Below are positions 5,538 to 51,010 of a stretch of DNA of 64,000 nt, piece by piece. The position numbers were made by a program, and so were the translations under genes. Location of the stretch: positions 64,001 to 128,000 of IMG/VR virus record IMGVR_UViG_3300008448_000002; one strand, given 5' to 3'. Below the pieces are notes generated by a model. It ran no database searches, was not told the origin of the DNA, and worked only from the letters and a program-made list of their open reading frames with translations. Source of the stretch: a virus. Position 1 is the stretch's first letter. The number at the start of each line of letters is the position of its first letter.

Positions 5538-6284
5538 TCAGCCAATAATAAATCCATAACCCATATTAGAATCCATTTGATTCTTTAATTCTTCTTCAAG
5601 AGTTATCATCATTTCTTTGGCATCGGCTTTTAATTCAGCACCATTTAATGAGCCGCCTCCTTGTGGTCCAGCGATTGTAGAAAACTTAGAATATGCTTCT
5701 CCAAGCATCATTTTACATTTTGCCACGGTATATTCTCTTATCCAAGGTCTAGCATATATATCTTTTAGAATAATATCATCGGGTCTTGTATTGTGTATAT
5801 GTAGTAAGATTGATTCTACGTTTCTGATGTCTCTATCTAAAGATAACCTTCTTGATGTTGGGTCGTATTGAAAGGTTACATATAGACCAAACATTCTACC
5901 TATTATTTCCTGAAATCCAGAAAACAATTCATATGTCACTAAATCTGTGCTTCCGCCACCTGTTAAAACAAATTGGTTTACAAACGCAGAGGCAAATGGG
6001 TCAAAATTGAGTCCTTGACCAGAAATAGTGCCCGTTGTACCTCTTCTAAAGATATTTTTCACTAAAATTACTTCTTCTGGTAAGTAATAGTCTCTTTGTC
6101 CTGGTTGTACCTCTAAAAACGCAAATCTTTCTTCTGTAGAGTTTACTGACCTTAATCTATATCTTTCAAATGCCAATTTTAATGCCAATTCATAATGTTC
6201 TGGGTCAAGGTAAACATCAACCAATCCTTCACCAAGGGTTAGTCTAACATCATTGATAATTTCTTGTTTTAATGGTGATAACAT
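5538..6284 (-). CDS. gp13: Neck/head-tail adaptor protein (T4 gp13-like)
   Basis: IRLTLGEGLVDV-like N-terminus; WIREYTVAKCKMMLGEAYSKFSTIAGPQGGGSLNGAELKADA. Confidence 0.85.
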   Translation of the reverse strand: MLSPLKQEIINDVRLTLGEGLVDVYLDPEHYELALKLAFERYRLRSVNSTEERFAFLEVQPGQRDYYLPEEVILVKNIFRRGTTGTISGQGLNFDPFASAFVNQFVLTGGGSTDLVTYELFSGFQEIIGRMFGLYVTFQYDPTSRRLSLDRDIRNVESILLHIHNTRPDDIILKDIYARPWIREYTVAKCKMMLGEAYSKFSTIAGPQGGGSLNGAELKADAKEMMITLEEELKNQMDSNMGYGFIIG

Positions 6285-11328: not shown

Positions 11329-11799
11329 ATGTCAGAAAAAAATACAATTCCCGTTTTCGTTTATGGAACTTTAAGAAAAGGCTCAACTGCCAATCATTTT
11401 TTAGCAGATGCCACTTATCTTGGTGAGGATACCACAAAACAAAAATCATTTGATATGGTTGATTTGTACAGTAGTTCAACGAGTAGTTTTCCTGGTGTTG
11501 TAAAAACTGGTAAGTTTGGCATCGAAGGTGATGTGTATCTTGTTAATGATGATACCCTGTCCATGTTAGATGATTATGAATCAAACGGCTCATTATACAA
11601 CCGAGAATTAATAGAATTGAGTGGATTTAAAGACAAAGCATGGATTTATTTTTTCAACTTGGCGCGATTTGAAAGAAACTTTAAAGTATTAGACTGGTAT
11701 GAGTCTGAAAGAATATCCCATGAAAATAACACGTTAGTATGGGAAGCAAAATCTTTAAAGAATGTAAAACCATTTAGACCAAGTGTTAGAAATATTTAA
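11329..11799 (+). CDS. Gamma-glutamylcyclotransferase (GGCT/AIG2-like) family protein
   Basis: VFVYGTLRKG..NHFL, IEGDVYLV, LDDYE...LYNR. Confidence 0.85.
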   Translation: MSEKNTIPVFVYGTLRKGSTANHFLADATYLGEDTTKQKSFDMVDLYSSSTSSFPGVVKTGKFGIEGDVYLVNDDTLSMLDDYESNGSLYNRELIELSGFKDKAWIYFFNLARFERNFKVLDWYESERISHENNTLVWEAKSLKNVKPFRPSVRNI

Positions 11800-11817
11800 A
11801 AAATATTTTATTATTGT

Positions 11818-12339
11818 ATGATATTAAATGTTGCGACAAAAATTACACCGCTAGCACTAGCCAACACGTTTATAGAGCGTCATGGGCGGAAAGTGAATGG
11901 TATACAGCATATGAAGCTACAAAAGCTATGCTATTACGCACATGGCTGGTGGCTTGCTTTACAACCTGAACCGTCCGAACCGTTTCTGACGGAGCGACCG
12001 CAAGTATGGAAATATGGTCCCGTTTTTAATTCGCTTTACAATGTTCTTAAACCCTTTGGTAAGCGTCCGATTAAAGAACCAAAATCGGATAATCCATTCG
12101 TTACACCTGATGTTGTTCAAAATGCTGAAGTCATTAAGTTGATTGATTGGATATGGAATAGATATGGGCAATATACAGCAGAAACACTATCTGACATGAC
12201 CCACGAAGAAGGCACACCTTGGAGAAATATTGCTAAGGAAAATCACTACAGAGTTAGGCGTGACTTACCTATTGATAACAGGCGTGTAAAAGATTATTTC
12301 AACAGCGAATACAAAAAATTGGCACCCTCAGCAACATGA
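11818..12339 (+). CDS. Panacea/SocA-family (DUF4065) antitoxin, with no toxin partner adjacent
   Basis: ANTFI, MKLQKLCYYAHGW, QVWKYGPV..LY, L..IW..YG.YTA..LSDMTH.EGTPW. Confidence 0.9.
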   Translation: MILNVATKITPLALANTFIERHGRKVNGIQHMKLQKLCYYAHGWWLALQPEPSEPFLTERPQVWKYGPVFNSLYNVLKPFGKRPIKEPKSDNPFVTPDVVQNAEVIKLIDWIWNRYGQYTAETLSDMTHEEGTPWRNIAKENHYRVRRDLPIDNRRVKDYFNSEYKKLAPSAT

Positions 12340-12410
12340 ATGAAATTATATATACTTTACAAACCCATAGCTAAAATTTTACTAAATAATAATTAAAGGA
12401 GGCTTTAATT

Positions 12411-12542
12411 ATGAATGAAGAAAATATGGCGGATGGCGAGGAAGAACGTATATTTTATTTCGATGCGAGTGATTTTGAACGAAGCCAAGAACGAATGGTA
12501 GCGTTATCTTGTTTAGCCAAACATAATCAAGGGAGCAATTAA
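12411..12542 (+). CDS. 43-aa mini-protein with a weak portal-clip-like motif
   Basis: Manual translation: MNEENMADGEEERIFYFDASDFERSQERMVALSCLAKHNQGSN*. Strong SD AAGGAGG at 12396-12402. ERIFYFD resembles portal ERRVFYID. Confidence 0.6.
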   Translation: MNEENMADGEEERIFYFDASDFERSQERMVALSCLAKHNQGSN

Positions 12543-12544
12543 GT

Positions 12545-12721
12545 ATGACTAATTTAGAAGAATTAATTAACAGCGGTAAAGTAAAGAAAACTCGTTGTAA
12601 TATTACTGGAAAAGTAACTTATGAGATTAACCTTAAACATATGTCTACAAGTAAATGCGATGAATATATAACACGAGTCAAGAATGAAATGAAAAAACAC
12701 AAAAATAAAGAAAGAATGTAA
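12545..12721 (+). CDS. 58-aa mini-protein with a portal-clip-like motif
   Basis: Manual translation: MTNLEELINSGKVKKTRCNITGKVTYEINLKHMSTSKCDEYITRVKNEMKKHKNKERM*. GGGAG SD. Shares K......RVKNE with portal KAQQWVERVKNE. Confidence 0.7.
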   Translation: MTNLEELINSGKVKKTRCNITGKVTYEINLKHMSTSKCDEYITRVKNEMKKHKNKERM

Positions 12722-12722
12722 T

Positions 12723-12848
12723 ATGGATACAGAACATACAGAAATAGGTGAAGAAATAATTCTAAATATTGATACAAGTAATATGACAGATGAACAGGCG
12801 AATGATTTACTCAAAAGAATTAAAGATATTGTTTACGGAATAGAATAA
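12723..12848 (+). CDS. 41-aa mini-protein with a portal-clip-like motif
   Basis: Manual translation: MDTEHTEIGEEIILNIDTSNMTDEQANDLLKRIKDIVYGIE*. IDTSNM..EQA..LLKRIK has the strand-turn-helix pattern of the portal clip. Confidence 0.65.
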   Translation: MDTEHTEIGEEIILNIDTSNMTDEQANDLLKRIKDIVYGIE

Positions 12849-12878
12849 TTAACAAAAAGTAATGAAAGAATAAAGAAT

Positions 12879-13148
12879 ATGAGAATAACACAAGAAACTA
12901 GAATCGAGGCATTAAAACTCGCTATTGAGGCGCATAAAACCTTACCGCCAAGTGTAATTGTAGATGCGGCGAAGGTCTTTGAACAGTATATTACTGGATA
13001 TGATTCGCTAACCGATGAAGAAAAAGATGCTATACTTATCAAAAGAATACAAAAAGCACAAGAAAGAAAAATAATTCATGTTGAAGTTGGTGAAATGTCG
13101 CCCCATAAAGCAGAAAATTATATCGAAAATATTAAAAAGAATAGTTGA
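12879..13148 (+). CDS. 89-aa protein: small helical N-domain fused to a portal-clip homolog
   Basis: Residues 50-86 (DAILIKRIQKAQERKIIHVEVGEMSPHKAENYIENIK) versus portal residues 281-317 (DAILIYRIQRAPERRVFYIDVGDQPPHKAQQWVERVK): 19/37 identical. Confidence 0.85.
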   Translation: MRITQETRIEALKLAIEAHKTLPPSVIVDAAKVFEQYITGYDSLTDEEKDAILIKRIQKAQERKIIHVEVGEMSPHKAENYIENIKKNS

Positions 13149-13182
13149 CATTTGATATAATTTCTGTTAATTTATATAAATA
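13145..13182 (+). promoter_or_regulatory. Dual promoter: sigma70-type (TTGACA-17-TAATTT with extended TG) plus T4-late-type TATAAATA
   Basis: TTGACA 13145-13150, TG 13165-13166, TAATTT 13168-13173, TATAAATA 13175-13182. No ORF downstream until 14551. Confidence 0.65.
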
Positions 13183-13980
13183 ATACTAGCGATTAATTTA
13201 ACTCATATTATAACTCAAAGAATTTCCCTCGTTTATTAATTAAGTTTGACATGCGGAACACCTGACGCAGCGTTGTAAGTCTATTAAGGGGCTAGACGAA
13301 TGGAAGCGACTACTATTACGCCCTTAGCGGGATACCGTAACAGTACAGAGTGCCATTTCCCGTGAAAAGGAAGAAAGACTCCGTTCATAAATGGATAGCT
13401 ATGTTTACTTAGTTTATTGGCCATTTATGATTTTGTAATTAAAAGTATTGCATTTATCATAAATCGGTAACATAAAAGTCGGCAGTACTATAAAATCACT
13501 CAACTGACTCCTTAATTGGAGAGGAATTGATGCTGCTTAAAGATTCTTGATTAGAATCTAATTTTCAAAAGAATTGTAATTATAAGAATTAGATATGTAG
13601 GATAAGGAAAATTAAGTTCTAAATCAGGGGAACATAGAATACTGTTGTGTTATGAATAAAGAGTATGCTCTGTCTGTGAAGTTATTGACAACATACAACA
13701 AAAATAGGCTTCTGCTGGAAGTTTGTTGGTCTATTTTTGTACCGCCCTAGAATGACGAGAGTTGTTCGGAACAAGTGTTAAAATTAGGTATACGGAGGGC
13801 CGCCTAGCAAGAAGAAACTTGTACACTAACAATTAATATTTCCAGAAGACGTGATAAAAAATGTTTTAAATGTTCCCTCTACATCTGTTATCGGCACTTT
13901 ATTGTGTTTTAGGCAGGTGTAGGGGGAAAAGACGTGCGCTACGCGCAAGAAAGCAAGAAAACCTAGTTTGGGGGGGGGGT
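13183..13980 (+). ncRNA. Candidate large structured non-coding RNA (possible replication primer RNA)
   Basis: No ORF of 60 aa or more. Stems at 13385-94/13421-30 (10 bp), 13541-47/13553-59, 13698-709/13729-40 (12 bp, 1 G.U), 13762-66/13770-74 and 13873-87/13914-28 (15 bp, 2 G.U). The wobbles work only on the + strand. Ends at a G10 run. Confidence 0.5.
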
Positions 13981-14456
13981 GATGTAGTAAGAATGCCTTG
14001 TATTAGTTGATTATTAGAAGTAATGAATTAAATTGATAAATTAAATAAAAACTTACCAAGTAGACCTGATGATTAAATAAAAACAAATTTATATAAAATA
14101 TATACTTTAAAATAACTCGCACTGATATATCACAAATTAACTAATATAAATTAATTACCTGATGTATATAAATTAACTTAAAGTAATTGCCATGTAAGGT
14201 AGCGTGACACGGCTTGCGCCATGCCACTCACAAGTTGTAAGTTAGATTGCTTCGGCTAACGCCTCGCCCTAACTTACAACTTAATATTTTCTTTATTGAA
14301 TTAATTTAATAAGTAATTAAAATAAACATATAAAAATACTCTTAGAACAAGATTGAGTAATGGTAAAAGTAATTAACAAGTAAGAAGGAGGGCGTAAGCC
14401 AGACTGAATTACTTGTTAATTAAGAGAGGTGCGAGGTCGTAGACCGAGTAGCTCGC
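13935..14456. other. Cluster of GC-rich GNA/GNNA mini-hairpins and two 14-bp inverted repeats around AT-rich DNA; putative replication origin
   Basis: TGCGC-TAC-GCGCA (13935-47); GTGGCATGGC-GCAA-GCCGTGTCAC on the minus strand (14204-27); 14-bp IR 14232-45/14269-82; 14-bp IR 14370-83/14409-22 enclosing GGC-GTAA-GCC; GGTC-GTA-GACC (14435-45). Confidence 0.55.
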
Positions 14457-14550
14457 TAGAACAGATTAACTAAGAAATTATGAATATAACCTGAAAATCA
14501 CTTAAGGACATCTATGTCCAGATTTCAATCAAGTTATAAATATATGTAGC

Positions 14551-17500
14551 ATGACAAATAACACATATCACCTATCTGTAAATAATTCAAATATAGCTGA
14601 AATAAATTCAGGTGGAGAAATATACGAATTAATAACAAGTAATGGATTCCAATTAAAGACATATGAACATATACCCAATGTACTATCATTTACCTCTAGT
14701 GATTCTATAAGAAAAGAAATATTCGACAAGTCATATATAAAATACAAAACAGATGAAATATTTTTTAATCTCAATTCTGTTGTACTCAAGTTTAAAAAGA
14801 AATACTCATGGGGTCTTGACAGAATTGGCAAAAGAAACCCATTATTACAAAAGAAATACTTTGGAACGGAAACGGGTAAAGGAGTAAATCTATTTGCCAT
14901 TGATTCGGGTGTGTTCCATCAACATGATTCTGTTAATAAAAAAATAAATCTCACATTCGCATATGATGCGTTTTTTGATAATAATGATGTGAATTTTATA
15001 CTTCCATTTAACAATAATTCCTACATTGATTCGCATGGTACAGAAATGGCGAGTATTATACTTGATGGCGATTTTGGTACGACATCTAATGTGAATTATA
15101 TTCCTGTTCGTATTTTTAATGATATTGGTATTGCCTCATTGTCGGATTTGTTAGATTCTTGTAACCATATTATTGATACTCATTTATCTATAAACGTATC
15201 AACTCCTTTTGGTAACTCATTATATAAACCGTCTATTGTTAATATGCCATTCAGTACAAAAAATAAGGCATTGTTACTAGATGATGTTATGTCTGCTTTA
15301 TTGGCAAATAATATTCATGTTGTTACGAGTTCTGGTAATGATAATGATGATGCTTATAATTATAGTCCTCAATCTGCTGGTGTATCAAGAAATAAAGTTT
15401 TAATCAGTGGTAACACATACAGAGTAGACACAAGTATTAATTATACAAAAAAGCCTATTGTGGTAGGGGGCTGCGATAACCCAAGTATAGAAATCATTCA
15501 AAAAGATAAAGTATGGAAAGAAGATAATTTTAATGGGTCAAATTGGGGAGAGTTTGTTGATATACTGTGTCCCGCCAAGGATATATTAGTAGGAAGTTTA
15601 TCTTTTTCTGGTTCAAATTGGAATAATTCTATAAGGAATTATTATACATATAAATCTGGTACAAGCTATAGTAGTGCCTTTTGCTGTGGTATTTTGGCAA
15701 TGTATTTACAAAAAGAAAAAAATCTCACAACAACGCAATTATACAATAAATTATTAAGACGTTCAACCATAGGAAGTTTAGAGATAGATGATTTATCTAA
15801 TTTAAGAGATAATGAACAGAATGATATATTTATTAATCCTGTTGTTGTCACACCAAACAGAATAGGGTATATTTGGTATACGCCTATTTTGATTAACTTT
15901 GATACAATTAATACAATTATAGTTGATGAAAATACAGAAAATGATATTAAAATAACAGCGATATCAACTGATAGTTTTAATGAAAAACAAAAAGTTAGCT
16001 TTTTTCTTGGAACAGTAACTTCTCCTATACCAACTTATACCGATTTAAATATAACAGCATTATTCGGCGATATTTATGAAGGTAATGATATATTTGGAAA
16101 CCTTAATATACAAAGTAATTTTGTAACTGAGGATACTGTATCTACCATTACTATTACTGTTGTTGATGGATTTTCGGATGATTATAGACACTTTCAGACT
16201 TTATCCATACCTATCAATATAAAGAATCTTTCTGTTATGCCTACATGGTTATTACCAGTAGAAAGTAATTTGGGTGATATATCACAGGATGATAATATTG
16301 ATATTGTGTTTTCTTGTAGAGATTTAACAGACGGTTCGCCTGTAACATACACTATATTACCGTCAAATGAAGTATTGCCTATTGGATTAAGGTTTCAAAA
16401 TCTAGTAGATGGAACATTCAAGATATTTGGTACTGTTGGGGCATTAGATAAAAAGTTAGAAAAATATGAGTTTTTCATTAGGGCAAAAACATCTGTTGGT
16501 AAATTTTCTGATAAATATTTTTTCTGGAATACTAATATTGTAAATATACCACAAGAGTTTGATACCTTGTGGACAGATACTCTTCCAAGTACAACTGTTA
16601 ATACTAATGTTTACTATAATTTAGGAACATATCCAAAAAACACACCTCTTGGAATAAACTTACTAATTAATTTATTGATTTATAACCCTGATAATGACCC
16701 GTTGATTATAAAATTATTTAAATCACCTGATATTACTACAAGTTTTGGAAAACTACCCCTCGGTTTAAAACTGAATACTGAAAGTAGACGAATTGAAGGC
16801 ATCCCCTCTGTTAGTATTTCTGGTGGCACATATTATTTTAAAATAACATTAGGAGATGGAGAGTTTGTTACAAATGGTTATTTTAGTATAACTATATCTA
16901 ATGATGACATAGGATTAATACAAGACCCCAGTGATATAACATGGACTACCCCCGCTGGATTCATTGGCGAAATATATGAAACGTATCCATCACACCTTAG
17001 TGTTTTGGCTAAAAATAGTGCCAATGGAAGAATACAATATATATTATCAAGTGCCAGTAACCCAATGCCGCAAGGATTAAGCATTGATGCCAATACTGGA
17101 TATATAGTTGGTAATGCTCCCTATGTTTCTGGAACGGCAACATATAGTATAACAGTATCAGCTTACAATGAGTTTGTTTCGGTTGATAGAACATTTACTT
17201 TTACTATTATATCCATATATGATACTCAAAATGTCATAAGTATTGATGTTTTATTAACGGGATTACCTACCAAAGATAGATTAAATCTTGTTAGATTACA
17301 ATCGTTTATAAACAAAAATAATATATTTAGAGAAGACGATGAAAACTTTGGTATTAAACAAGACTTGAGAATGTATCTTGTGGCAGGATTAAATTCTGTT
17401 TCAGATAGTGTAGTTTATGCCAAATTAAAAGATTATCATCAGGATTTATCGGTTAAGTTTGGAAAATTGAATTACCAATCTGTGACAGATACAGTTGGAA

Positions 17501-40562: not shown

Positions 40563-40600
40563 CAAAGTATAAATAATAAACTATAGTAATATTATCTTAT

Positions 40601-40672
40601 TGCGCCGTGGAGCAGTGGTAGCTTGTCTGGCTCATAACCAGAAGGTCGTTGGTTCAAATCCAACCGGCGCAT
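40601..40672 (+). tRNA. tRNA-Met(CAT), initiator-like, no encoded CCA
   Basis: Acceptor TGCGCCG/CGGCGCA, anticodon arm TCTGG-CTCATAA-CCAGA, A11-U24 pair, T-loop TTCAAAT. Promoter TTGACA-17-TATAGT at 40559. Confidence 0.9.
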
Positions 40673-50332: not shown

Positions 50333-51010
50333 ATGAAACAAATTACATTAAGCGGATTGGCAATAGGGCTTACTATTATGACAATCATTTGCTCAATCGG
50401 TGCGGCTTTAATTTCACTGTTTTTAGGCGATTTTATAGCTTTTCTTACACTTCAAGAGCCTCCTTATAATTTTTTGTTTGCGTTGTCTTTTTTAATTCTC
50501 TGTACATGGTTTCTTTATGGCTCTGTAAAAAAGGATGAAGCCATAAAAGAATATTTGCTCTATAAAACCAGGAATCATGAAAAAACTATTAGATACTTAA
50601 AGGCAGATGAAAAATTATCTAATCACTATAGGTCTGGAACGGTTTATTGTGGCGGAAGAGATTTAAGTAATGGAAGAAGAGTTTCAAGAGATGAATCAAG
50701 AGAAATATCAAACTATTACTTTGAAAGAGAAAACAGAATTAAAACAGAATATGATGAAAGCTATGTTGACTGGCTTAGATTTGTTGAATCTCGTGGATAT
50801 AAAGGGTTTATAAAAAGATATATTGATAGAAAAATCAGTTATTATAATAATAAACAAAAACGAGAAATCAAAACAAAGAAAGAAAAGGAAAGAATAGAAG
50901 AGTTTGAAAGAAAGACCACACTAGATGTTTTTAAAACGCAAGAAAATTATGAAAAATGGCTACATGCGAGTGAAGACGAACGCATTTCAATATTACGAGC
51001 ACTCAATTAA
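50333..51010 (+). CDS. Membrane protein (two N-terminal TM helices)
   Basis: Hydrophobic segments in about the first 62 aa; charged C-terminal region. Confidence 0.65.
   Translation: MKQITLSGLAIGLTIMTIICSIGAALISLFLGDFIAFLTLQEPPYNFLFALSFLILCTWFLYGSVKKDEAIKEYLLYKTRNHEKTIRYLKADEKLSNHYRSGTVYCGGRDLSNGRRVSRDESREISNYYFERENRIKTEYDESYVDWLRFVESRGYKGFIKRYIDRKISYYNNKQKREIKTKKEKERIEEFERKTTLDVFKTQENYEKWLHASEDERISILRALN

Follow-up and report, generated by a model that had tools for sequence, protein, structure and literature searches.

The gene-free block at positions 13149-14550, in the genome of an uncultured T4-like jumbo phage, is best read as a composite non-coding locus; that it forms a single large folded RNA is not supported. 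What stands out within it is a handful of local elements: a late-type promoter motif with a diverged copy of the leader of the phage's own gp32 gene, one exceptionally stable hairpin, and a single long run of G. The reading that we tentatively prefer, and regard as quite possible, is a late transcription unit that lacks any ORF and carries local functional hairpins.

All positions refer to the window, the whole 64,000-nt stretch of DNA that was analysed, comprising bases 64001-128000 of a 194,657-bp IMG/VR contig, unless contig numbering is indicated. The contig has a GC content of 31.7% and a completeness of ~51% (CheckV). Among isolates, Agrobacterium phage Atu_ph07 and Sinorhizobium phage Phosso come closest to it (52-56% portal identity), and the portal identity of every relative found in IMG/VR is at most 55%. 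The block sits inside an accessory islet, 3' of a conserved structural gene and a gp15-like tail gene. This gene pair is kept in three near-complete relatives, from which the islet and the gap are both absent. Also found in the islet are a GGCT-like and a Panacea/SocA gene, together with four small ORFs whose similarity is to a single segment of the portal protein. The small ORFs form a tandem array (12411-13148; 43, 58, 41 and 89 aa) with strong codon periodicity (z 8), and the pattern hhhxhDxxx...RhK is common to all four. The last of them, the 89-aa ORF, is 50% identical to residues 280-317 of the resident portal, and the second (58 aa) shows a weak match to residues 297-328. A search of a set of 5.8 billion proteins found no homologues of these mini-ORFs, which may be decoys against a portal-sensing defence.

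The initial annotation had described an ORF-free region at 13145-13980 and called it the largest non-coding block of the window. The block is real and proved to be larger than described. It spans 1402 nt, and no other ORF-free stretch of the entire contig is as long, the runner-up measuring 605 nt; the largest gaps in the three near-complete relatives are about 600-921 nt long, several of them being tRNA clusters. The locally raised GC content noted at the same time was also confirmed (0.42 at 13200-13399 and at 13800-13999, compared with a contig mean of 0.317). The longest stop-free run in the block is 58 codons, and frame 1 contains 48 stops. Three-nucleotide periodicity is absent (z -0.65 to 0.23, versus 2.8-25 in the neighbouring genes, mini-ORF array included), and the six read-through translations of the block gave no match in Pfam or PHROG. 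The density of stops, the lack of periodicity and the lack of any Pfam or PHROG trace speak against a decayed protein gene or pseudogene. The sequence of 11413-17148 recurs unchanged in an independent NCBI metagenome contig, which therefore supplies no variation. Since periodicity and family matches are missing and the independent contig is identical, we conclude that the block does not code for protein and is no gene that was broken recently.

Several further explanations for the gap were tried and rejected. Reassignment of TGA or TAG under an alternative genetic code opens no long frame beyond chance. An intron in the portal gene was considered on account of the 89-aa ORF, but no portal remnant lies downstream of it; PF07230 and phrog_213 match only this fragment and the real portal, and the idea was rejected because splicing would join unrelated genes. 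No second copy that would mark the block as a repeat, a template-repeat or a mobile element exists elsewhere in the contig. Apparent 24-nt "terminal" inverted repeats proved to be promoter-like words, rich in A+T, whose order does not fit a true inverted repeat.

The features recognised in and around the block are as follows.

13112-13220, + strand: diverged copy of the gp32 upstream region and leader (~100 nt), found by blastn; overlaps the end of the 89-aa ORF.
13153-13161, + strand: extended -10-like motif TGATATAAT; a motif match, weak evidence when taken alone.
13175-13182, + strand: T4-type late promoter motif TATAAATA; the motif is enriched in intergenic DNA.
13197-13220, + strand: TAACTCA-repeat leader motif, identical to the gp32 leader at 23 of 24 positions.
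13221-13860, + strand: untranslated body with G>C and A>T, as on the sense strands of the genome; folds no better than shuffles or coding controls.
13698-13740, + strand: predicted 13-bp stem with two G.U pairs, listed earlier as 12 bp.
13861-13936, + strand: hairpin A, with 7+17+5 bp (29 bp), -34.9 kcal/mol, z -7.25.
13970-13979, + strand: G10 tract, the sole G-run of at least 6 in 194.7 kb.
13986-14190, no strand assigned: A+T-rich tract (80% A+T) with the 13-nt direct repeat ATTAAATAAAAAC in two copies 32 nt apart.
14199-14282, - strand: hairpin cluster B, a 10-bp GCAA-capped hairpin and a perfect 14-bp inverted repeat (14232-14282).
14283-14365: A+T-rich spacer with a sigma70-like site TTGAAT-16-TAAAAT (14296-14323, + strand; motif match).
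14370-14456, + strand: hairpin cluster C, made up of a GUA-capped hairpin and a perfect 14-bp inverted repeat (14370-14422) with a GGC-GUAA-GCC tip.
14535-14542, + strand: second TATAAATA, 8 nt 5' of the ATG of a 1274-aa S8 protease/baseplate gene.

The two motifs of the dual early and late promoter proposed in the initial annotation are both present at the 5' edge, and only the second stands out from the genomic background. The extended -10 motif (TGnTATAAT) is intergenic at 3 of its 33 contig sites, which is the background rate and amounts to no enrichment. In contrast, TATAAATA is intergenic at 22 of 38 sites (58%), when intergenic DNA makes up 11%, an enrichment of ~5-fold. This enrichment makes the copy at 13175 a credible late promoter, from which a + strand transcript would probably begin near 13189. 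Another TATAAATA lies 25 nt 5' of a tRNA-Met gene (40568-40601), so at least some of the tRNAs may be transcribed late.

The DNA around this promoter motif is paralogous to the region upstream of the phage's own gp32 gene, which carries the PF08804 domain. The two regions are 65.7% identical over 108 nt (blastn, E 1.6e-5), and the 23/24-nt leader core TTTAACTCATAT(T)ATAACTCAAAG occurs at these two loci only in the contig. At gp32 the leader motif leads directly into AAAGGA and an ATG, whereas its counterpart in the block reads AAAGAA; the Shine-Dalgarno site and the ATG of gp32 are missing from the block, and the next ATG starts a frame of four codons. No gp32 coding remnant was found 3' of the block leader by tblastn or blastn. 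The gp32 leader itself (contig 50540-50640, - strand) consists of a GACAA-GUGAAA-UUGUC hairpin and, between it and the start codon, three UAACUCA repeats, and this layout of hairpin and repeats resembles the autoregulatory operator of T4 gene 32. The T4 gene 32 translational operator is a leader bound by gp32. The block edge is like that operator in its paralogy to a gp32 upstream region, including the unstructured TAACTCA repeats that precede the gp32 start, and unlike it in having no ribosome site, start codon or gene behind the leader; by analogy, gp32 might bind here as well.

The initial annotation had further claimed that the ~800 nt downstream of the promoter form a structured, strand-specific RNA. 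The 801-nt + strand fold is indeed more stable than its shuffled versions (z -2.9, with 1 of 83 shuffles better; z -3.15 with 20 shuffles), whereas the - strand fold of the same stretch is not (z -1.4 to -1.8). With hairpin A left out, however, the z-score of 13185-13865 falls to -0.99, like that of coding controls (six 800-nt stretches, z -2.24 to +1.16), and the claim of extensive structure does not hold. Sliding 150-nt windows across 13145-13800 were ordinary (z -2.6 to +1.3), a confident pairing state was obtained for only 37% of positions, and the stem at 13311-13348 favours the - strand. Because the body folds like the controls once hairpin A is removed, we read the structure as a matter of local elements and not of a global fold. 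The two stems named earlier do exist: the one at 13698-13740 has a pairing probability P of 0.86, and the other, at 13874-13927, comprises 16 bp with four G.U pairs (P 0.98). Strand specificity was upheld for hairpin A and for 14362-14470, both of which favour the + strand, but not for 14195-14300, which favours the - strand.

A cmscan with 4227 Rfam families returned no family match at the gathering score or at E<=10, apart from a chance U6atac hit (E 1.9). ARAGORN detected no tRNA or tmRNA in the block, even at 80% thresholds, and yielded noise at 65% thresholds; RNase P RNA (RF00010) was not found in this phage or in the three relatives. These results agree with the earlier opinion that the RNA is not a tRNA, tmRNA or RNase P. 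They do not sustain its assignment to the ROOL/GOLLD kind, for which no Rfam match was obtained and for which the folding excess is limited to one hairpin. The likeness to ROOL and GOLLD is one of size class and phage setting alone; unlike those RNAs, the block matches neither Rfam model, is not surrounded by tRNA genes and shows no excess of structure along its whole length.

No other fold of up to 80 nt on either strand of the contig, tRNAs included, is as stable as hairpin A. On the - strand it reaches just -18 kcal/mol (z -4.4), the weaker version being due to its G.U pairs. We take its dimensions to fit an RNase III-type processing or stability element. Transcripts of phages T7 and lambda carry RNase III processing hairpins, and hairpin A likewise has a double-stranded stem of ~29 bp with a symmetric internal loop in an untranslated stretch. 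As a separate observation, a 1468-nt JGI contig (sample 3300042691) with the same 89-aa ORF would stop at about position 13885; this assembly break apparently falls in hairpin A.

The G10 run lies between hairpin A and the A+T-rich tract, and the three relatives have no G-run of at least 8. The sole C-runs of at least 6 in the contig, a C6 and a C7, lie 230 nt apart in a locally GC-rich stretch at contig 153660-153895 (89660-89895 in window numbering). In its A+T content the A+T-rich tract stands within the top 0.1% of windows but is not unique, about a dozen windows of the contig being equal to it. Beyond this tract, cluster B (14195-14300) folds with -44.9 kcal/mol and z -6.3 on the - strand, against -31.6 kcal/mol and z -3.7 on the + strand, on which a U-rich tail lies 3' of the 14232-14282 stem. 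Cluster C (14362-14470) shows the opposite preference (-37.2 kcal/mol and z -6.35 on the + strand, -25.8 kcal/mol on the - strand); the S8 protease/baseplate gene probably has its 5' UTR here. Perfect inverted repeats of at least 14 bp number four in the contig, two of which are those of clusters B and C; our back-of-envelope estimate from base composition gives an expected number of ~0.16. The other two belong to the AAAATCCCTGTA...TACAGGGATTTT terminator family of the phage. Intergenic AAAATCCCTGTA-loop-TACAGGGATTTT hairpins, flanked by A-runs and T-runs, occur at contig positions 53238-53269, 55847-55880, 87562-87603 and 88824-88857, and this family appears to be the standard bidirectional terminator of the phage. 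The hairpins of the block, for their part, have no second copy in the contig. The start of the S8 protease/baseplate gene (14535-14553) has no Shine-Dalgarno site and, with TATAAATA only 8 nt before the ATG, this suggests either a nearly leaderless late mRNA or read-through from upstream. The segment 14283-14550 as a whole looks like a promoter and structured 5' UTR for this gene.

The block is an orphan locus, with no homologue in the collections searched. A blastn comparison with 50,697 phage records found no relative; three exact-word scans for the block sequence, and a BLAST of the block against 20 related viral records, gave empty results or chance matches. Protein-anchored searches for the locus in viral contigs and metagenomes, using the gp15-like and S8 genes, retrieved no related block, and protein searches with the two flanking ORFs each returned the query itself alone. 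Finally, nhmmer --max found no homologue in the three near-complete relatives.

According to the transcription-unit reading, the left part of the block would be an ORF-less + strand unit that runs from ~13189 to 13985, possibly as far as the U-rich tail past 14282, and would be driven by the T4-type late promoter. The leader behind that promoter would have been copied from the phage's own gp32 gene, making it a likely candidate site for the single-strand-binding protein of the phage by analogy with the gene 32 operator. The bulk of the transcript would be loosely structured filler, with working parts that are probably local. Hairpin A may serve as an RNase III-type processing site, or as a stability or protein-binding element, and the unique G10 run right behind it would be a third probable working part. 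The right part (14283-14550) would simply supply the S8 protease/baseplate gene with a promoter and a structured 5' UTR, as is ordinary for a gene.

We base this reading on the absence of an ORF, of codon periodicity and of any protein-family trace; on the position of the intergenic-enriched TATAAATA at the left edge; and on the paralogy of 13112-13220 to the gp32 upstream region, with a core unique to both loci. It is also favoured by the G>C and A>T skew, which fits the + strand sense transcripts of the genome, by the stability and strand preference of hairpin A as the top fold of the contig, by the control-like folding of the body once hairpin A is set aside, and by the U-rich tail that trails the 14232-14282 stem on the + strand. 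From these features we infer that the unit is transcribed, where it might end, and which roles its hairpins and leader could have. Four considerations count against the transcription-unit reading. With no homologue found, no stem is backed by selection. Cluster B, the candidate for a + strand terminator, is more stable when folded as the - strand, and the usual terminators of the phage belong to a different hairpin family. Lastly, a cassette of promoter and leader that lacks a gene might just as well be a relic.

A more specific form of this idea, which we consider doubtful, is that the gp32-operator-like leader, hairpin A and G10 jointly make up a new late phage RNA that acts either as the primer of an R-loop origin or as an RNA effector of the islet. 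In the effector role it would serve the neighbouring putative counter-defence islet, with its Panacea antitoxin and portal-fragment mimics.

The relic possibility leads to the first competing explanation, which we judge somewhat unlikely: the block could be a functionless spacer left by cassette recombination. A gp32-type promoter and leader would then have been fused to DNA that is foreign or scrambled, and the hairpins would be residual pieces of terminators or UTRs. The hyperplastic regions of T4-like phages contain promoter/stem-loop cassettes (PeSL), and genes are shuffled at these composite cassettes (PMC2839356, PMC4122927). The block resembles them in that its cassette is common to unrelated loci and stands at the edge of a variable islet, whose GGCT, Panacea/SocA and four portal-fragment mini-ORFs are absent from the relatives after the gp15-like gene. 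The leader copy without ribosome site and ATG, the ordinary folding of most of the block and the lack of a relative in any collection searched all accord with a spacer. However, the cassette here combines a late promoter with a leader, not a terminator with an early promoter, and its hairpins are single-copy, unlike those of PeSL cassettes. Dead DNA of 1.4 kb would be more than twice as long as any other gap in the contig, and stop density and periodicity reveal no decaying gene. The top hairpin of the genome, a unique G10 run and two perfect 14-bp repeats together are also unlikely leftovers.

The second competing explanation, an RNA-primed R-loop origin of replication, appears unlikely to us. 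It proposes that a G-rich untranslated RNA stays hybridised at the G10 run, that the A+T-rich tract unwinds, and that the 3' end of the RNA primes the leading strand, as at T4 oriF/oriG or by ColE1 RNA II, the alternative suggested in the initial annotation. Once opened, the DNA would be held in that state by the + strand hairpin and by the perfect inverted repeats on either side. T4 origins provide the precedent, as they consist of a promoter and an A+T-rich unwinding element that act through R-loops (PMC3016281). Among them, oriE combines an early promoter with iterons, oriC may need a late promoter, and oriF and oriG measure ~100 bp in total, with the promoter directly before the unwinding element (PMC3016281). 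In the block, as in oriF/oriG and ColE1 RNA II, an A+T-rich tract lies beyond a promoter and a putative transcript that is not translated. As in ColE1 RNA II and mitochondrial CSBII, a G-run lies on the RNA-like strand; in ColE1 RNA II, a long untranslated primer, such a run anchors the hybrid close to the start site. The G10 of the block is unique in the contig and would end the transcript body immediately 5' of the tract, which has its own 13-nt repeats and is flanked by two of the four long perfect inverted repeats of the contig, against the ~0.16 of our estimate. On the other hand, the spacing differs from that of T4 oriF/oriG and ColE1 RNA II, with ~800 nt between the promoter (13153-13182) and the A+T-rich tract, and the best-supported promoter is of the late type, which is odd for the firing of an origin. 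Cumulative GC skew tracks gene orientation, with its minimum near position 6000 and nothing at the block, the presumed transcript itself shows no extreme GC skew, and the tract is just one of the dozen or so equally A+T-rich windows. Unlike for ColE1 RNA II, no antisense regulator was identified in the block.

Least of all do we credit a single globally folded ncRNA of ~800 nt of the ROOL/GOLLD kind, which is very improbable: the + strand fold that beats shuffles and the raised local GC speak for it, but the signal vanishes with hairpin A, few positions have a confident pairing state, one stem prefers the - strand, no Rfam family matches even at E<=10, and with no homologue there is no covariation.

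The locus is at present a single orphan, and its value is mainly that of a target for the mapping of transcripts and of replication. Should the late transcript exist and work by way of its leader, hairpin and G-run, we would have before us one of the rare giant T4-like phages that devote more than 1 kb to a non-coding function. If true, this could also hint at how such uncultured phages initiate replication or control their single-strand-binding protein.
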